DNA of 55,818 nucleotides from Candidatus Gottesmanbacteria bacterium (GTDB taxonomy: Bacteria; Patescibacteriota; Microgenomatia; UBA10105; UBA927). The translations under genes and the position numbers were made by a program. The DNA lies in contig JACREM010000047.1 of NCBI GenBank assembly GCA_016218215.1, positions 1 to 55,818 of the forward strand. The letters run 5' to 3'. Below the pieces are notes generated by a model. That model was not told the origin of the DNA. It worked only from the letters and a program-made list of their open reading frames with translations, and made no database searches. This document shows, in pieces, positions 42,920-48,539 of the stretch; within the stretch, counting starts at the first letter, position 1; each line of letters begins with the position of its first letter.

Positions 42920-43798
42920 ATGAAAAAAATAAGCGAGTATTTTTCCTGGTTTGTCCTCCTTGTCTTCGCTGGCCCTACGTTTATGATCATCATCTCATGG
43001 AATAGTGTTCCGGGTGATCCTTTGTATAAAACGAAACTGTATCTCGAGCAGACACTGGTATTGCTTGTAAGCCCCTCTAGGGATACGGCTACCAGCTTGC
43101 AGATGAAATATACGGAAAGACGGCTTGAAGAAGCAAAGACCCTCTTATCCCGCGACCAGTCCTCTGAGGGCTTAGCATACCTTCAGGATCAGATAGTTTC
43201 TACGGGAACGTTTATAGCAAGTTCCAAAACAAGTGCAGATCAATCGGTTCAAGCTGCAAAGTATATAGAGACACTGCAGAAAGTCTCGAAGGAACTTGAG
43301 GTACAGAATAGAACCATAACAGGCACTTCCTCCACAAATCTTTTAACCGCAAATACATCAAACCAACAAATAAATATTGGTACTCAACCAATCAGTTCGC
43401 CTCAACAAGCGGTCTCAAACACATCTCTTTCTAATGCCACTCCGTTGCCACAAAATCAATCAGCTCTTCCATCAGTAGGGACAGCTCCTTCATCAACTGC
43501 TTTAGCAAATAAGCCTGTCGTTATTCAAAATACGCCGCTTGCTGTACCGACGAATTCTGTCATTGCTGCGAAACCCGCTTCTGTACCTTCTCCCACAGTA
43601 TCGCAGGTTATCGTGTCACACGAGATTCAGGCGACACAGGAAAAAATAAAAGAGACCATAAAGGAAATGGAAAAAGTGAAGAAGGATTCTGAAGATAACA
43701 AAAGTCGAAATACAAAAGAACGGGATAAACAACAAAAAGAAGAGCAGAAAAAATCCGAAGATGAAAGCAGGAGGATAAACGAAAAAGTTTCTATGTAA
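42920..43798 (+). CDS. Membrane-anchored coiled-coil protein (DUF5667-like) with Pro/Thr/Ser-rich linker
   Basis: TM, PGDPLY.TK...E, ERRLEEA, low-complexity middle, charged tail. Confidence 0.7.
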   Translation: MKKISEYFSWFVLLVFAGPTFMIIISWNSVPGDPLYKTKLYLEQTLVLLVSPSRDTATSLQMKYTERRLEEAKTLLSRDQSSEGLAYLQDQIVSTGTFIASSKTSADQSVQAAKYIETLQKVSKELEVQNRTITGTSSTNLLTANTSNQQINIGTQPISSPQQAVSNTSLSNATPLPQNQSALPSVGTAPSSTALANKPVVIQNTPLAVPTNSVIAAKPASVPSPTVSQVIVSHEIQATQEKIKETIKEMEKVKKDSEDNKSRNTKERDKQQKEEQKKSEDESRRINEKVSM

Positions 43799-43812
43799 GT
43801 TTCTAACGAAAA

Positions 43813-43840
43813 TTGACAGACTGAATAATTGTGATACAAT
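43813..43840 (+). promoter_or_regulatory. Promoter of the T-box/pro operon
   Basis: TTGACA-N16-TACAAT with extended TG. Confidence 0.75.
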
Positions 43841-43849
43841 ACATAAAAT

Positions 43850-44055
43850 CTAAGAAAAGCGTTTAAGTTTGGTTTCCCGCCAAACAAGCTGCATACGAAG
43901 AGTACGACGGAAGGCAACCGTAAAAATATAACCAAAGTGTGTCGTAAACTAACGGAGCACTAATAAGGATTATTTTATAGATACACACCATAGGTTGGTG
44001 TGTTTTTGTTTAAGATCAAAACAAGGTGGTACCACGAGTTTAATCTCGTCCTTGT
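43850..44055 (+). ncRNA. T-box riboswitch leader (proline), atypical 5' domain
   Basis: Antiterminator ACAAGG-[TGGTACC]-ACGAG...CTCGT-CCTTGT (44021-44055), preceded by a Stem III-like hairpin ACACACCA/TGGTGTGT. Confidence 0.9.
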
Positions 44056-44088
44056 CCCGATTCAATCGGGATGAAGACGAGATTTTTT
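44042..44088 (+). terminator. T-box terminator
   Basis: AATCTCGTC..TCCCGAT-TCA-ATCGGGA..GACGAGATT plus T-run; mutually exclusive with the antiterminator. Confidence 0.88.
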
Positions 44089-44107
44089 GTGGCAAAAAAT
44101 GATAAAT

Positions 44108-44731
44108 ATGAAAGTAATGACTATCAAAATAGGAAGCAGTGTGTTACTCACCCAGCGATATAAACTGGATGAGTTTCGCGTTGCACATATTGCCGACCAA
44201 GTTGTTTCTCTTAAGGGACAAGATGTGGGAGTTGTTTTGGTGGTTTCAGGAGCGGTAGCTTGTGGAGCGAGCCGTGTCAACTTTTCCTCTGAAGATAACG
44301 AGTTAAAGATGGTTGCAGCTGGAATTGGCCAGGCCTACGTCATCTCTGTTTTCCAGCAGATATTTTCAAAAAAGCATGTACAGATAGCTCAGGTGCTAAT
44401 AACAAAAGATCTTTTGAATTCAAACAGTAAAAAAGAGGCTATGGGTAAACTGCTTCATACGTACTTAGAAATGGGCGTGGTAGCTGTTATTAATGAGAAT
44501 GATGCTATCGATCTTAATAGTTTTGGAGGTAATGATTTTCTCGCAACAGATGTTTCTATATTACTGAAGGTAGACCAATGTATGATGCTTTCTACCATGG
44601 CAGGTTCAGAGTATGGAGTTGGAGGAGGAAAAGCTAAACTTCAGGCTCTTAAACTACTAAGAAGGAACAATATCCAGGCAAATATTGTCGATGGTAAATC
44701 TAAAAACATTATTTTGCAAAGTATTTTATGA
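44108..44731 (+). CDS. proB: Glutamate 5-kinase-like protein, internally shortened, no PUA domain
   Basis: IKIGSSVL, VSGAV, AAGIGQ, AQVL, INENDA, G.ND, G.GG..AKL. Confidence 0.85.
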   Translation: MKVMTIKIGSSVLLTQRYKLDEFRVAHIADQVVSLKGQDVGVVLVVSGAVACGASRVNFSSEDNELKMVAAGIGQAYVISVFQQIFSKKHVQIAQVLITKDLLNSNSKKEAMGKLLHTYLEMGVVAVINENDAIDLNSFGGNDFLATDVSILLKVDQCMMLSTMAGSEYGVGGGKAKLQALKLLRRNNIQANIVDGKSKNIILQSIL

Positions 44732-45924
44732 AAAACACACTTAACTTAAAAAAGATCCAACTTACAGCCACTCAACTCTCTAACGCTACCGAGGGACAGC
44801 GTGATCTATTTTTGAAATTCTTGTCAAAGACATTAATAGAACGGCAAAGTAAGATTATAGAAGCCAATAAAAAAGACGTTAACGCCTCCAAAAAGAAAGG
44901 TCTACCCTCTGCATTTATCGAGCGATTGGTTCTTGATGAAAAGGCAATACAACTTTTGGTCTTAAAACTTGAAAATATTGCAAAGCTACAAAGTCATCTT
45001 GGCAAAGTAGTAGAAGAAAACTCTGATGAACAAGGATTAACTATTAAAAAGGTGAGAGTTCCCTTAGGAGTAATTGCGATCATTTATGAAGCCAGACCTG
45101 AAGTAACAATTGATGTTGCGGCTCTCTGTGTTAAATCTGGTAATGCCGTAATTCTCAAGGGAGGATCGGAAGCGGTTGAGACAAATAAAATCCTTTATCA
45201 CTGTATTTTGGCGGCTTTAGAGAAAGCAGGCTTTGCTAGAGAAGTGGTAAGTTTTATCTCCAGTAGTGACCGAAAAATAACTGACAACCTTCTCAAGCAA
45301 CATAAGTACATCGATTTAGTTATTGCCAGAGGTGGTTATGAATTGGCGAGAAGTGTTCTTCATAAATCAATGATTCCTGTTCTGGCTCATGCAGCAGGTG
45401 GAGCAAGAATTTACATAGATAAAAGTGCAGACACATTTCTCGCTCAAAAAATAATAATAAACGCCAAAACAAGTAAACCATCTGCCTGTAATTCAATTGA
45501 CACAATTGTCGTACATAAAGATATTGCAAACGACTTTATTTCAGACATTACCAATGCTTTGAAGAAAGCGAATGTTGAAGTTATGAGTAATGAGGATTGG
45601 GATAAAGAATTTTTGGGATTGTCTATCAACATAAAAATCGTAAAGGACATTGATGAGGCAATAAGCTTTATAAATGAACACAGCAAGAAACATTCTGAAG
45701 GCATTATTGCAACGGATAAAAATGTGATTGAGCAATTTATGAATTCAGTCGATTCTGCCGCTTTATTTGCCAACTGTTCCACGCGATTTCATGATGGATA
45801 TGTATTCGGCTTGGGATCAGAAATGGGTATCTCTACAAGCAAGCTTCACGCGCGTGGACCAGTTGGATTAAAAGAATTAATGACGTATAAATGGGAGGTA
45901 TATGGCAATGGACACATTCGATAA
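44728..45924 (+). CDS. proA: Gamma-glutamyl phosphate reductase
   Basis: VPLGVIAIIYEARP, LKGGSEA, PSACN (catalytic Cys), STRF.DG, GISTSKLHARGPVGL. Confidence 0.95.
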   Translation: MKNTLNLKKIQLTATQLSNATEGQRDLFLKFLSKTLIERQSKIIEANKKDVNASKKKGLPSAFIERLVLDEKAIQLLVLKLENIAKLQSHLGKVVEENSDEQGLTIKKVRVPLGVIAIIYEARPEVTIDVAALCVKSGNAVILKGGSEAVETNKILYHCILAALEKAGFAREVVSFISSSDRKITDNLLKQHKYIDLVIARGGYELARSVLHKSMIPVLAHAAGGARIYIDKSADTFLAQKIIINAKTSKPSACNSIDTIVVHKDIANDFISDITNALKKANVEVMSNEDWDKEFLGLSINIKIVKDIDEAISFINEHSKKHSEGIIATDKNVIEQFMNSVDSAALFANCSTRFHDGYVFGLGSEMGISTSKLHARGPVGLKELMTYKWEVYGNGHIR

Positions 45925-46741
45925 AAAAATAGCAGTCATTGGTGGAGGCCATATTGGTCAAGCTTTAGTGGAAGGCTTTATCAACAGTGGCAAAATTTAC
46001 GGTAATCAAATTATTATTTCTAACCCTTCTTTGTCAAAACTTACTCACTTGGAAAAATACGGTGTTGAACTAACTTCAGATAATAAAACTGCTGCAGAAA
46101 AGGCAGATTACGTTTTTCTGTCTGTAAAACCTCTGATAGTGGGAGTAGTCTTGAGAGAAATTAGTAGTTTATTAGAAGAGAAAATCGTTATTTCTTTAGC
46201 CGCTGTCGTCTCTATTTACAACCTGAAAAAATATGCTAAGAGAACAAATATAATCAGAGTCATGCCAAACATGGCAATTTCTTGCAATCAGGGAGTCATT
46301 GGATATTATGCAAGGGGGCATGATAAATTTCAGGTTAAGAAATTACTGTCTACTTTAGGAACTGTTATTAAAATGAAAAAGGAGGTAGATCTAGATCTTT
46401 TGACGTTACTTTCCGGATGCGGTCCTGCAATCGTCTCACAATTTATAGAATTGTTAGAAAATTACGGGATCAAAATTGGTTTATCTGCTGATGTAAGCCA
46501 AACGACGGCAACACTAACTTTTAAAGGTACGACAGCTATACTGGAACAGAAAAAACAATTACCAAGTCAGTTGATTCAGTCCGTATGTACTAAAGGAGGA
46601 ATAAGTGAAGCAATTTTAGATTCATTGAAGATGAATGGATTTCAAAGTACCTTTGACTATTCAATGGACTCAGGATTGAGTAAAATACGAGCATTGAAAG
46701 ATATGTATAATAAAAAGCAGGAGGAATATGGCAGCGATTGA
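45902..46741 (+). CDS. proC: Pyrroline-5-carboxylate reductase
   Basis: IGGGHIG, SVKP, RVMPN, SGCGPA, VCTKGG. Confidence 0.93.
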   Translation: MAMDTFDKKIAVIGGGHIGQALVEGFINSGKIYGNQIIISNPSLSKLTHLEKYGVELTSDNKTAAEKADYVFLSVKPLIVGVVLREISSLLEEKIVISLAAVVSIYNLKKYAKRTNIIRVMPNMAISCNQGVIGYYARGHDKFQVKKLLSTLGTVIKMKKEVDLDLLTLLSGCGPAIVSQFIELLENYGIKIGLSADVSQTTATLTFKGTTAILEQKKQLPSQLIQSVCTKGGISEAILDSLKMNGFQSTFDYSMDSGLSKIRALKDMYNKKQEEYGSD

Positions 46742-47063
46742 TGATTTTAATCAGTTAGATATACGGGTCGGAAAAATTATAGAAGTTAATGAGTTTCCAG
46801 AGGCGAGGAAACCGTCATATAAACTGACGATTGATTTTGGTTCTGAGATTGGCATAAAGCATTCCAGTGCCCAACTCGTGAAACATTACACAAAAGAGGA
46901 GCTACTGAATAAAAAAGTGTTGGGTGTAGTCAATTTTCCTCCACGACAGATTGGGCCTTTTATTTCCGAGTCTCTGACGCTCGGAGTGCCGGATGAAAAC
47001 CATGACTGTATATTAGTGGCGCCAGATAAAGACTTTGCTGTTATTGGCGGTAAACTGTATTAA
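46728..47063 (+). CDS. csaA: CsaA/Trbp111-like tRNA-binding OB-fold protein
   Basis: DIRVGKI, ARKPSYKL.IDFG, SSAQL, VNFPPRQIG...SE.L.LG. Confidence 0.9.
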   Translation: MAAIDDFNQLDIRVGKIIEVNEFPEARKPSYKLTIDFGSEIGIKHSSAQLVKHYTKEELLNKKVLGVVNFPPRQIGPFISESLTLGVPDENHDCILVAPDKDFAVIGGKLY

Positions 47064-47084
47064 GATAGTCTTAGGAGACAAATT

Positions 47085-48539
47085 ATGGCAAAAGTTTTTG
47101 AAAAAAAGGAACTCAAGAAAAAATCTGAAAATCTTTCCGATTGGTATACGGATGTGGTGCTCAAGGCGGAGCTTGCAGATTATGGCCCTGCAAAAGGCAC
47201 TATGGTCATACGTCCCTATGGCTACGCTATCTGGGAAAGATTACAGCATATATTAGACACCATGTTTAAAGAATATGGTGTGGTAAATGCATACTTTCCG
47301 CTTTTTATCCCATACTCATTTTTAGAGAAAGAAAAAGAACACATGAAAGGGTTTTCCCCGGAGCTTGCCATAGTAACTCATGGTGGAGGGGAAAAACTTA
47401 AAGAGCCTCTCGTGGTGCGGCCCACGTCCGAAACGATTATGTATCACATGTATGCAAAATGGATTCAAAGCTATAGAGATCTACCGGTTCTCATAAACCA
47501 ATGGAATAACGTCGTACGCTGGGAAATGCGAACCTATTTATTTTTACGAACAACAGAATTTTTATGGCAGGAAGGACATACTGCACATGAAACTGAAGTT
47601 GACGCGATAAGAATGCAGGAAGCCGCACTTGCATGGTACCAAAAAGCATATGAAGAGTATTATGCAGTTCCAGTGATAGCAGGAATAAAAAGCAATAAGG
47701 AGAAATTTGCTGGAGCGAAAACGACATATACGGTTGAAGCACTTATGCCGGATGGCAAAGCGCTTCAGGGAGCGACTTCACACAACTTAGGACAAAATTT
47801 TTCTAAAGTGTTTGACATAAAATTTCAAAATAGAAAAAGTCAGGAAGATTTTGCATGGCAAACATCATGGGGTTTTTCCACCCGAAGTCTAGGCGGATTA
47901 TTTCTTGTTCACGGAGACGATCAGGGACTCATACTGCCACCAAATATTGCGCCTATGCAGGTCATAGTGATGCCCATTCGTAAATCCGATCTTTCAAATG
48001 AACTCCTTGATGAGTATGTGCAAAATATTAAAGAAGCGCTTCTAAACGGCGGAGTGAGAGTAAAAGTGGATGCACGAGAGGAACCGAGTGTCGGTCGTAG
48101 ATTTAATGAATGGGAAGTAAAGGGAATACCAGTGAGATTTGAAATTGGTCATAAAGAGGCAGAGGACAATACGGTCACACTCGTCCGAAGAGATACAGGT
48201 GAAAAAACAGTGGTCAAACGAAGCGATATGCTTGTCACCGTCGAAAAGGTACTAAAAACTATACAGGACGATTTATTTGAGAAAGCGAAAACTTTTCGTG
48301 ATAAACATACCCATGAAGTTAGTACCTATGATGAGTTTAAAAAGATCATGGAGACATCCAGAGGGTTTATCAAAGCGTTCTGGTGCGAAAATGCCCATTG
48401 TGAAACCGCGATAAAAGAAGAAACAAAGGCCTCCACACGCTGTTTGCCGCTTGAAGATATTGATAAAAATCTTGATGGAGTTTGTGTAAAATGCGGAGCG
48501 AAAGCGATACACAAATGGCTCTTTGCACAGGCCTATTAA
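47085..48539 (+). CDS. proS: Proline--tRNA ligase (archaeal/eukaryal type)
   Basis: RPTSET, VVRWE, FLRT.EFLWQEGHT, QGATSHNLGQNF, C-terminal Zn site and terminal AY. Confidence 0.96.
   Translation: MAKVFEKKELKKKSENLSDWYTDVVLKAELADYGPAKGTMVIRPYGYAIWERLQHILDTMFKEYGVVNAYFPLFIPYSFLEKEKEHMKGFSPELAIVTHGGGEKLKEPLVVRPTSETIMYHMYAKWIQSYRDLPVLINQWNNVVRWEMRTYLFLRTTEFLWQEGHTAHETEVDAIRMQEAALAWYQKAYEEYYAVPVIAGIKSNKEKFAGAKTTYTVEALMPDGKALQGATSHNLGQNFSKVFDIKFQNRKSQEDFAWQTSWGFSTRSLGGLFLVHGDDQGLILPPNIAPMQVIVMPIRKSDLSNELLDEYVQNIKEALLNGGVRVKVDAREEPSVGRRFNEWEVKGIPVRFEIGHKEAEDNTVTLVRRDTGEKTVVKRSDMLVTVEKVLKTIQDDLFEKAKTFRDKHTHEVSTYDEFKKIMETSRGFIKAFWCENAHCETAIKEETKASTRCLPLEDIDKNLDGVCVKCGAKAIHKWLFAQAY

Follow-up and report, generated by a model that had tools for sequence, protein, structure and literature searches.

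T-box riboswitches of the canonical kind, represented in Rfam by RF00230, combine a long Stem I (with a side-bulge Specifier Loop that has an S-turn, an AG bulge and a distal loop) with a UGGNACC bulge, A1 and A2 helices and a mutually exclusive terminator that ends in a U-run. The proBA and proI T-boxes of Bacillus have a bulged CCU specifier (Brill et al. 2011, as cited in the accessible text of PMC3858371). Another build is known from the actinobacterial ileS T-boxes, which have an ultrashort Stem I (Sherwood et al. 2015; structures 6UFG and 6UFM, as given in the accessible sections of PMC7583486), and the same sections report ultrashort Stem I's mostly for T-boxes that act on translation. 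Here we describe a leader at positions 43850..44088 of contig JACREM010000047.1 from a Candidatus Gottesmanbacteria bacterium (assembly GCA_016218215.1), located in front of proBAC-csaA-proS; the window is this contig, 55,818 nucleotides (nt) in length and read on the forward strand. With a probability of roughly 0.8, the leader is a proline-specific T-box riboswitch that acts by transcription attenuation and has an ultrashort Stem I and a reduced Stem II. We favour an ultrashort-Stem-I transcriptional T-box because, in leaders of the lineage, the apical-loop triplet names the downstream amino acid (35/48) and a hairpin with a U-run follows (37/41). Identity is well supported by comparison with related leaders, while the mechanism is proposed by analogy with described systems. 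What would be new is a transcriptional T-box with an ultrashort Stem I, a build described so far, going by the accessible part of that literature, mainly for translation-controlling T-boxes of Actinobacteria; a full-text search, with most subscription journals outside its coverage, found no paper linking T-boxes with Patescibacteria or Candidate Phyla Radiation (CPR) names.

The leader combines traits of three described classes. With canonical T-boxes it shares the bulge, the A1 and A2 helices and the exclusive terminator with U-run and, as for Bacillus proBA, an F-box and a IIA/B pseudoknot and a logic in which uncharged tRNA-Pro would switch proline synthesis on. It differs from them in having no long Stem I, in carrying its codon in an apical loop, in a Stem II cut to a hairpin of 5 base pairs (bp) and in scoring 40 bits against a family cut-off of 93. 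With the actinobacterial ultrashort ileS T-boxes, as far as PMC7583486 could be accessed, it has in common a short Stem I whose apical loop carries the specifier with a purine after it, the absence of an elbow platform, and a Stem II and IIA/B pseudoknot that come directly next. That class, however, sequesters a Shine-Dalgarno sequence and so controls translation, and it retains a kink-turn (K-turn) and a Stem II S-turn that are said to be essential, whereas the present leader has an intrinsic terminator with U6 and neither G.A pairs nor an S-turn; phylum and amino acid are different as well. Finally, like glyQS T-boxes, the leader dispenses with the Stem II S-turn in the setting of an all-G-C codon-anticodon helix (GGC/GCC there, CCC/GGG here). 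The studied glyQS leaders retain a long Stem I with elbow contact, whereas the Gly leaders of this lineage do not.

The initial annotation of the window had described a complete antiterminator with a TGGTACC bulge and an overlapping terminator, and both can be mapped pair by pair. The RF00230 model matches 43882-44056 with 40.0 bits and an E-value of 1.3e-7 in 401 nt (9.9e-8 genome-wide). As the gathering cut-off of the family is 93 bits, the match surfaced only with E-value reporting; a scan of the window at gathering thresholds reported only a tRNA and no T-box. In the alignment, 44023-38 (AAGGUGGUACCACGAG) and the 3' part of the leader as a whole (AACAAGGUGGUACCACGAG...CUCGUCCUUG) have high posterior probability, which supports the T-box identity. 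The leader as a whole folds with a z-score of -5.2, and none of 200 shuffled sequences folds as well. The antiterminator, or discriminator (44023..44053, plus strand), begins 183 nt after the -10 box and consists of an A1 helix (AAGG 44023-26 with CCUU 44050-53), the 7-nt bulge UGGUACC (44027-33) and an A2 helix (ACGAG 44034-38 with CUCGU 44045-49). U44030 would pair with the discriminator base A73, and the tRNA-Pro(CGG) of the genome does end in A73. The intrinsic terminator (44043..44088, plus strand) is a two-part helix with an outer segment of AUCUCGUC (44043-50) and GACGAGAU (44076-83), an inner segment of 44055-60 and 44066-71, and a U6 tract at 44083-88. Both structures use 44043-53 and are hence mutually exclusive. 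At computed energies of -20.4 versus -6.8 kcal/mol the terminator is far more stable than the antiterminator; the default state should therefore be 'off', as in known T-boxes.

The decoding end of the leader is an ultrashort Stem I (43859..43889, plus strand), 100% paired in nine orthologues. Two base pairs (G43859-C43889 and C43860-G43888) lead into an asymmetric internal loop at the place of the K-turn, GUUUAA 43861-66 opposite AA 43886-87, with A.A instead of G.A pairs; relatives have UUUGA/AA there, or the canonical UGAUG/GGAGC. Above it stands the helix GUUUGG (43867-72)/CCAAAC (43880-85), closed by the 7-nt apical loop UUUCCCG (43873-79). Two helices displaying a Pro codon had been proposed as candidate specifiers, and the first of these, with the codon in the terminal loop 43873-79, is borne out: the hairpin 43867-43885 is kept in all nine full-length proB-type orthologues as GUUUGG, UUUCCCG and CCA(A/G)AC, its codon matches the gene downstream, and the same hairpin and loop recur unchanged in five families of the class, in which ProB identity falls to 38%. 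In the 7-nt loops of Pro-linked leaders, positions 4-6 are CCC, CCU or CCG, always a Pro codon with synonymous C/U/G variation at the third position, and each is followed by G. We therefore take CCC 43876-78 with G43879 (43876..43879, plus strand) as the specifier and its stacking purine. The overlapping CCG (43877-79) was rejected as the main register, as the orthologous loops would then read CUG or CGG.

This pattern extends well beyond the closest orthologues, in a comparison set from Patescibacteria with some 20 proline-linked leaders and some 60 further T-boxes. In genomes with proB, proC-like, csaA-proS or proS downstream, 14 of 14 full-length leaders show CCN and then a purine in Stem I's apical loop, on six different stems. 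Examples are GUUCGG/CCGGAC with loop UUUCCGG (G023, proC-like...proS), GUUCCGA/UCGGGAC with AUUCCGG (G006, proB), CGCUAUG/CAUAGCG with UUCCGAG (G007, proS), GUCCCG/CGGGAC with CUCCGAA (G018, csaA-proS) and GGUUUCG/CGGAACC with AGAUCCGAC (G012, csaA-proS). A metagenome scan, anchored on the IIA element and not on Stem I, found a downstream T-box bulge at 14 of the 80 loci examined out of at least 117 matches; one of these is a chance hit, leaving 13 further true leaders. Their loops include UUUCCCG (ahead of proB twice, of csaA once and of a DUF1893 gene once), UAUCCCG (proB), UCUCCCG (a class-III aminotransferase gene), UUCCCG (a gene of unknown kind) and UUUCCUG (an amino-acid kinase gene), and six more Pro-linked leaders from this source again have CCN plus a purine in the apical loop. 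Overall, 20 of 21 Pro-linked full leaders do so; the proS leader of G037, with a large loop starting CCAA, is ambiguous. The stem GUUUGG/CCAAAC also occurs in the aspS leader of G035 (L046), with the loop CUGACA (GAC, Asp), which looks like a specifier swap on one scaffold. Pro-like decoding modules with CGCA or GUCGCGA loops (CGC, Arg) are found ahead of small open reading frames with no Pfam family (L020 of G014, L143, L148, L196 and L202).

Short T-boxes of this build are common in the phylum and mostly missed by the Rfam cut-off. Of 41 relatives, 33 have RF00230 matches at E <= 0.01, and in a sample of the phylum 41 of 151 genomes have matches at E <= 1e-7; in either set only five genomes have a match above the cut-off. 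We examined 83 match regions from the relatives, named the genes downstream, and retained 48 leaders that have no long Stem I by a motif test and an amino-acid-naming gene downstream; long-Stem-I leaders (the Tyr group and ilvB), unlabelled leaders and L062, with a bulge outside the pattern, were left out. Automatic picking of the Stem I hairpin by an anchor rule missed or mis-picked many leaders, and we used a test on all loops with label permutation and a table compiled by eye. In 37 of the 48 leaders (or 39, counting AAC on aspS as cognate), some hairpin loop upstream of Stem IIA contains the matching codon with a purine after it; permuted labels give 17.3 +/- 2.9 with a maximum of 28, and 0 of 5000 permutations reach 37, although the leaders are kin and not independent, so that this figure and the shuffle figures overstate significance. 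By eye, 35 of 48 carry the cognate codon in the loop that caps the first hairpin beyond the base helix: Pro 8, Ile 14 (all AUC plus purine), Val 2 (GUC-A), Asp 4 (GAC), Gly 4 (GGC), His 1 (CAC-G, hisG), Thr 1 (ACC-A) and Arg 1 (CGC-A, argH). The rest are three aspS leaders with AAC (Asn), eight arginine-pathway leaders whose Stem I is of a different, intermediate type and has its codon in a side bulge, and two unclear cases (proS and class-I lysS). At the other end of the leaders, the fourth base of the bulge tracks the class (Pro U, Gly A in 4/4, His G), and a hairpin of at least 5 bp with at least 5 U follows the bulge by 22-66 nt in 37 of 41 short leaders.

Among the leaders with AAC loops, bacterial-type aspS genes are preceded by short T-boxes with AAC (Asn) and not GAC in the apical loop in G017, G012, G019 and G028 (L054, L056, L058 and L062), which would fit a non-discriminating aspartyl-tRNA synthetase regulated by the charging of tRNA-Asn. 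The genome studied here has three more T-box leaders under the Rfam cut-off: a long-Stem-I Tyr (UAC) leader scoring 75 bits (C78:15-321), a short ileS leader with the loop AUAUCA (C52:3538-3730) and an argG leader in which Stem I is of intermediate type and a side bulge holds CGA (C91:9041-9259).

The elements between Stem I and the discriminator were defined by an alignment of nine full-length and two 5'-cut proB-type leaders. The proposed structure is paired in 98.7% of 235 cells across the 11 leaders, a value reached in 0 of 500 shuffles and compared with 27-44% in slid controls, and the covariation score is 0.145 versus 0.079 in shuffles (0/500). In this alignment, of the kind that the initial annotation had suggested, Stem II and a lineage-specific hairpin X show compensatory changes; Stem I and Stem IIA are invariant in the proB-type group. 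The reduced Stem II (43892..43906, plus strand) pairs CAUAC (43892-96) with GUACG (43902-06) around the pentaloop GAAGA (43897-901); three of its five pairs show both-sided changes, its loop is GA(A/U/C)GA in 9/9 sequences, and an S-turn is lacking. Elsewhere in the lineage the Ile and Asp leaders keep a GAAGAA/AGUAGA S-turn, the Pro leaders have a bare hairpin and the Gly leaders no Stem II at all. The accessible text of PMC7583486 attributes the lack of Stem II in Gly T-boxes to the strength of the GGC-GCC duplex, and a bare Stem II in Pro leaders and none in Gly leaders fits the argument that an all-G-C codon-anticodon helix needs less support.

Stem IIA with its F-box-like extension CCGUAA (43918-23) occupies 43907..43923 (plus strand); its hairpin ACGG-AAGGCAA-CCGU (43907-21) is invariant in 10-11 sequences and corresponds to the Rfam IIA/B and F-box positions in orthologues. 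The Stem IIB strand of the pseudoknot (43932..43933, plus strand) would pair C43932 and C43933 with G43914 and G43913 of the IIA loop. Across leaders, this loop covaries with a strand about 10 nt downstream in eight different pairings (GG/CC, GGUA/UACC, GUC/GAC, GUCA/UGAC, GGAU/AUCC, UUGA/UCAA, GAA/UUC and GCAC/GUGC), and at least three Watson-Crick pairs form in 11 of 13 cognate pairs versus 28% of 150 mismatched combinations. Hairpin X (43937..43960, plus strand; GUGUGUCG - UAAACUAA - CGGAGCAC) lies between the pseudoknot and Stem III, has a constant U-G / G.A / U-G core and shows double changes in two of seven pairs. It is also present in the long-Stem-I Tyr T-boxes of the lineage and is missing from the shortest Pro leaders. 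We know of no counterpart in described T-boxes.

A number of points weigh against a functional ultrashort-Stem-I T-box. The Rfam score is far under the cut-off, as described above, and the leaders compared are kin. The internal loop at the base of Stem I has no K-turn G.A pairs, while according to PMC7583486, in its accessible part, short Stem I-Stem II constructs need the K-turn to bind tRNA. Within the nine closest orthologues Stem I is invariant apart from one U-A to U-G change, with no covariation inside the group, and in this genome Stem II has an A.C mismatch and the IIB pairing is just 2 bp. From the same source, transcriptional T-boxes generally require the elbow contact of a long Stem I for fast tRNA capture, for which a kinetic explanation is given. 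A canonical tRNA-Pro(GGG) was not found in the assembly (96.9% complete), which has only tRNA-Pro(CGG) and an aberrant GGG cloverleaf. Finally, the public sequencing runs that contain 43300-45300 number four, all of DNA and from one groundwater study, with no RNA run among them. Some of these points, namely the sub-threshold score, the degenerate K-turn and the 2-bp IIB, together with an internal terminator-like hairpin, would suit a decayed or tRNA-independent attenuator, in which the discriminator is kept and the 5' part no longer binds tRNA, or in which another factor such as a protein reads the leader. We consider this unlikely, as hairpin and loop stay the same in five families at such ProB divergence, the specifier codon varies synonymously, and codon and gene agree over eight amino acids.

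Control at the level of translation, or of translation and transcription both, is a still less probable reading. It would be in keeping with the actinobacterial precedent cited at the outset, in which ultrashort Stem I's mostly belong to translational T-boxes. However, a U6 tract comes after the alternative helix, which ends 20 nt ahead of the start codon, contains no Shine-Dalgarno sequence, and has its equivalent as a hairpin plus U-run in most short leaders of the lineage. The terminator with its U-run and this comparative evidence uphold the transcriptional control that the initial annotation had proposed.

A canonical but degenerate Stem I, as Rfam aligns it in this genome, is already contradicted and has very little chance of being correct. 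In that alignment the model is forced onto 43888-43958, with a base of GC 43888-89 and GC 43957-58, AGUA 43901-04, the helix CGAC 43905-08 / GUCG 43941-44, and UAAACUAAC (43945-53) as the 3' side that would contain the specifier; the match covers model positions 1-219, and AGUA and GGAGC fall on consensus positions. Against this, the 3' side 43945-53 holds no Pro codon, non-standard pairs are marked, and the distal part is left out, 47 distal model positions being replaced by 26 unaligned bases. RF00230 also treats the orthologous leaders of G001 (same genus) and G006 otherwise: 86-91 Stem I model positions are deleted, ACGG-loop-CCGU-AA is placed on Stem IIA/B and the F-box, and the preceding hairpin on Stem II. 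Covariation favours Stem II and hairpin X, and the latter is found 3' of true long Stem I's in Tyr leaders as well. The Rfam match had been predicted to cover the 3' half only; it does not, and in its Stem I part other elements have been wrongly aligned to the model. The AG bulge, AGAGA and the distal-loop platform are not conserved in the Rfam alignments or the leader comparison, and the leader does not have a long Stem I of the kind that combines K-turn, Specifier Loop with S-turn, AG bulge and distal loop, in line with the earlier remark that no recognisable canonical Stem I or AG-bulge/apical T-loop signature is present. We also looked at GGUUGGUG (43993-44000) as a displaced distal loop; it resembles the consensus, and was rejected as it is base-paired in an inserted hairpin and absent from orthologues.

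The other candidate codon, CCA 43932-34 opposite AGUA, used alone or with the loop codon, has the legal format of a specifier (CCA then A) and is single-stranded in the minimum-energy fold, yet it is most improbable, since orthologues show GAC, UACC, AUCC, UCAA or UUC at this place, each complementary to its own IIA loop as expected of a pseudoknot strand, and replace AGUA by AGCA in two cases. That replacement, and the pairing of the last three bases of AGUA inside the covarying 5-bp Stem II, also argue against the loop-E motif that had been seen here. Of the second helix as drawn in the initial annotation (GCATAC 43891-96 with GTGTGT 43937-42), the inner ACGG/CCGU hairpin stands as Stem IIA; the outer helix does not, because GCAUAC pairs locally as Stem II and GUGUGUCG 43937-44 with CGGAGCAC 43953-60. 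Of its observations, we therefore retain the promoter, antiterminator, terminator, missing canonical Stem I and first hairpin; of its interpretation, a transcriptional T-box with a loop codon as specifier and no canonical Stem I survives, while the CCA codon, the loop-E AGTA and the expected form of the Rfam match have to be given up.

Downstream of hairpin X, a purine-rich linker (UAAUAAGG, 43961-68) and the Stem III region extend over 43961..44022 (plus strand). This region contains an inserted hairpin, ACACACCA/UGGUGUGU (43983-44003, plus strand), followed by UUUUGUUU (44004-11); with 8 bp and -11.7 kcal/mol it is terminator-like. Among 82 T-box leaders of the lineage, 20 (Tyr, Pro and others) carry a comparable insert in the Stem III region, frequently with (A/G)UGG after it; four Pro orthologues have none. 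A candidate pairing of GUGUGU 43937-42 with ACACAC 43983-88, which could act as an anti-terminator of the inserted hairpin, is not conserved in L089 or G028. The inserted hairpin could be a pause site, a leaky first terminator or some other element; one tentative possibility is that, with its U-run ahead of the discriminator, it acts as a programmed pause and so gives a slowly captured tRNA longer to bind.

ARAGORN reports a tRNA-Pro(CGG) in the genome and a tRNA-Pro(GGG) on contig C25. The latter (C25:15454-15528, minus strand; L099 555-629) is a gene resembling tRNA-Pro(GGG), of 72% G+C, that forms a perfect cloverleaf of 21 bp; its D-loop (AAUAAGCUA) has no GG and its T-loop reads GGCGGGA in place of UUCAAGU, thus without UUC, and the Rfam tRNA model does not match it even at E <= 10. 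The gene is clearly homologous to the canonical tRNA-Pro(GGG) of G186, with close resemblance in the acceptor, D and anticodon arms. A pattern search of five genomes, all with UUUCCCG leaders, found a canonical tRNA-Pro(GGG) in G360, G454 and G186 and none in G001 or the present genome. The aberrant gene itself was found in 0 of 5 genomes of relatives by BLAST and pattern search, and a further search gave a single match with two mismatches in one of five genomes, which we do not take as the gene. The C25 gene would be the cognate partner of the CCC specifier and, because the canonical elbow nucleotides (D-loop GG and T-loop UUC) are lost, it may be kept mainly as a riboswitch ligand.

The genome comprises 1.27 Mb in 96 contigs with 42.5% G+C, and the window is its contig C15. 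The upstream gene ends at 43798 and is followed by the promoter, a leader of about 240 nt and five tightly packed genes. As claimed earlier, the promoter (43813..43840, plus strand) is clear: it is of the sigma-70 type, with a -35 box TTGACA (43813-18), a 16-nt spacer and a near-consensus extended -10 box TGnTACAAT (43832-40), matching the consensus at 11 of 12 positions plus the TG; transcription probably starts near 43847. The operon served by the leader (44108..48539, plus strand) likewise agrees with the earlier assignment and lies directly downstream: proB (44108-44731; a short form, an amino-acid kinase without the PUA domain, with the start at 44108 chosen by comparison with orthologues), proA (44728-45924), proC (45902-46741), a csaA-like gene for a tRNA-binding protein (46728-47063) and proS of the archaeal/eukaryal type (47085-48539), neighbouring genes overlapping or sitting 21 nt apart. 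The leader's place in a CPR lineage is supported by a 79%-identical ProB locus that belongs to a Patescibacteria group bacterium. Two records with the Patescibacteria-type proB leader (CAYHFH010000029.1 and CAYZEE010000093.1; L088 and L089) are titled 'uncultured Gammaproteobacteria bacterium', titles that are probably wrong. Few genomes of the lineage have genes for proline biosynthesis, and their distribution is patchy (proA in 4 of the 81 genomes of the family, proB in 8 of the 401 of the class and at three loci in the species-representative collection). Even so, five families share an identical leader hairpin, suggesting that the proline operon moves jointly with its leader.

Based on these features, the following mechanism can be envisaged. 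The decoding module 43859-43935, with its 6-bp Stem I hairpin, 5-bp Stem II with purine-rich GAAGA loop and IIA/B pseudoknot, would be transcribed first, and the loop UUUCCCG would offer CCC and the stacking purine to the anticodon of tRNA-Pro GGG and possibly, via the overlapping CCG, to that of tRNA-Pro CGG. The Stem II loop and the pseudoknot may pack on the codon-anticodon helix, as Stem II does in the actinobacterial ileS complexes described in the accessible part of PMC7583486. The tRNA elbow could not be gripped in the canonical way, because the leader has no AG bulge and no distal loop or double T-loop platform; elbow independence would follow from this anatomy. If the tRNA is uncharged, its NCCA end would pair with UGGU 44027-30 and hold the weak antiterminator, so that polymerase reads into proBAC-csaA-proS; if it is charged or absent, the far stronger terminator 44043-88 would form. 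We infer tRNA binding, support of the all-G-C codon-anticodon helix by the Stem II loop and termination in vivo from these structural comparisons.

The organism appears to be one of the few Patescibacteria that make proline, and the supply here would be tied to the charging of tRNA-Pro together with prolyl-tRNA synthetase. More broadly, T-box control is common in the CPR and largely invisible to standard annotation, and leaders of about 130 nt with a swappable loop codon could be compact tRNA-sensing parts, as GUUUGG/CCAAAC bears CCC on proB and GAC on aspS. It is possible, and we put this tentatively at somewhat below even odds, that Patescibacteria run aminoacyl-tRNA synthetase and amino-acid genes by a family of minimal terminating T-boxes of ~115-180 nt. 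Their only contacts with the tRNA would be through a 'codon loop' built like an anticodon loop and through the NCCA end, and none would involve the elbow; the Stem II S-turn would have been dropped for all-G-C codons (Pro and Gly), a GGG tRNA may have been kept as a ligand, and the inserted hairpin may serve as a pause. If true, such a family would contradict the view that transcriptional T-boxes need an elbow platform for timely tRNA capture, and its dozens of natural counter-examples would make the elbow-contact rule, as laid out in the accessible text of PMC7583486, directly testable.

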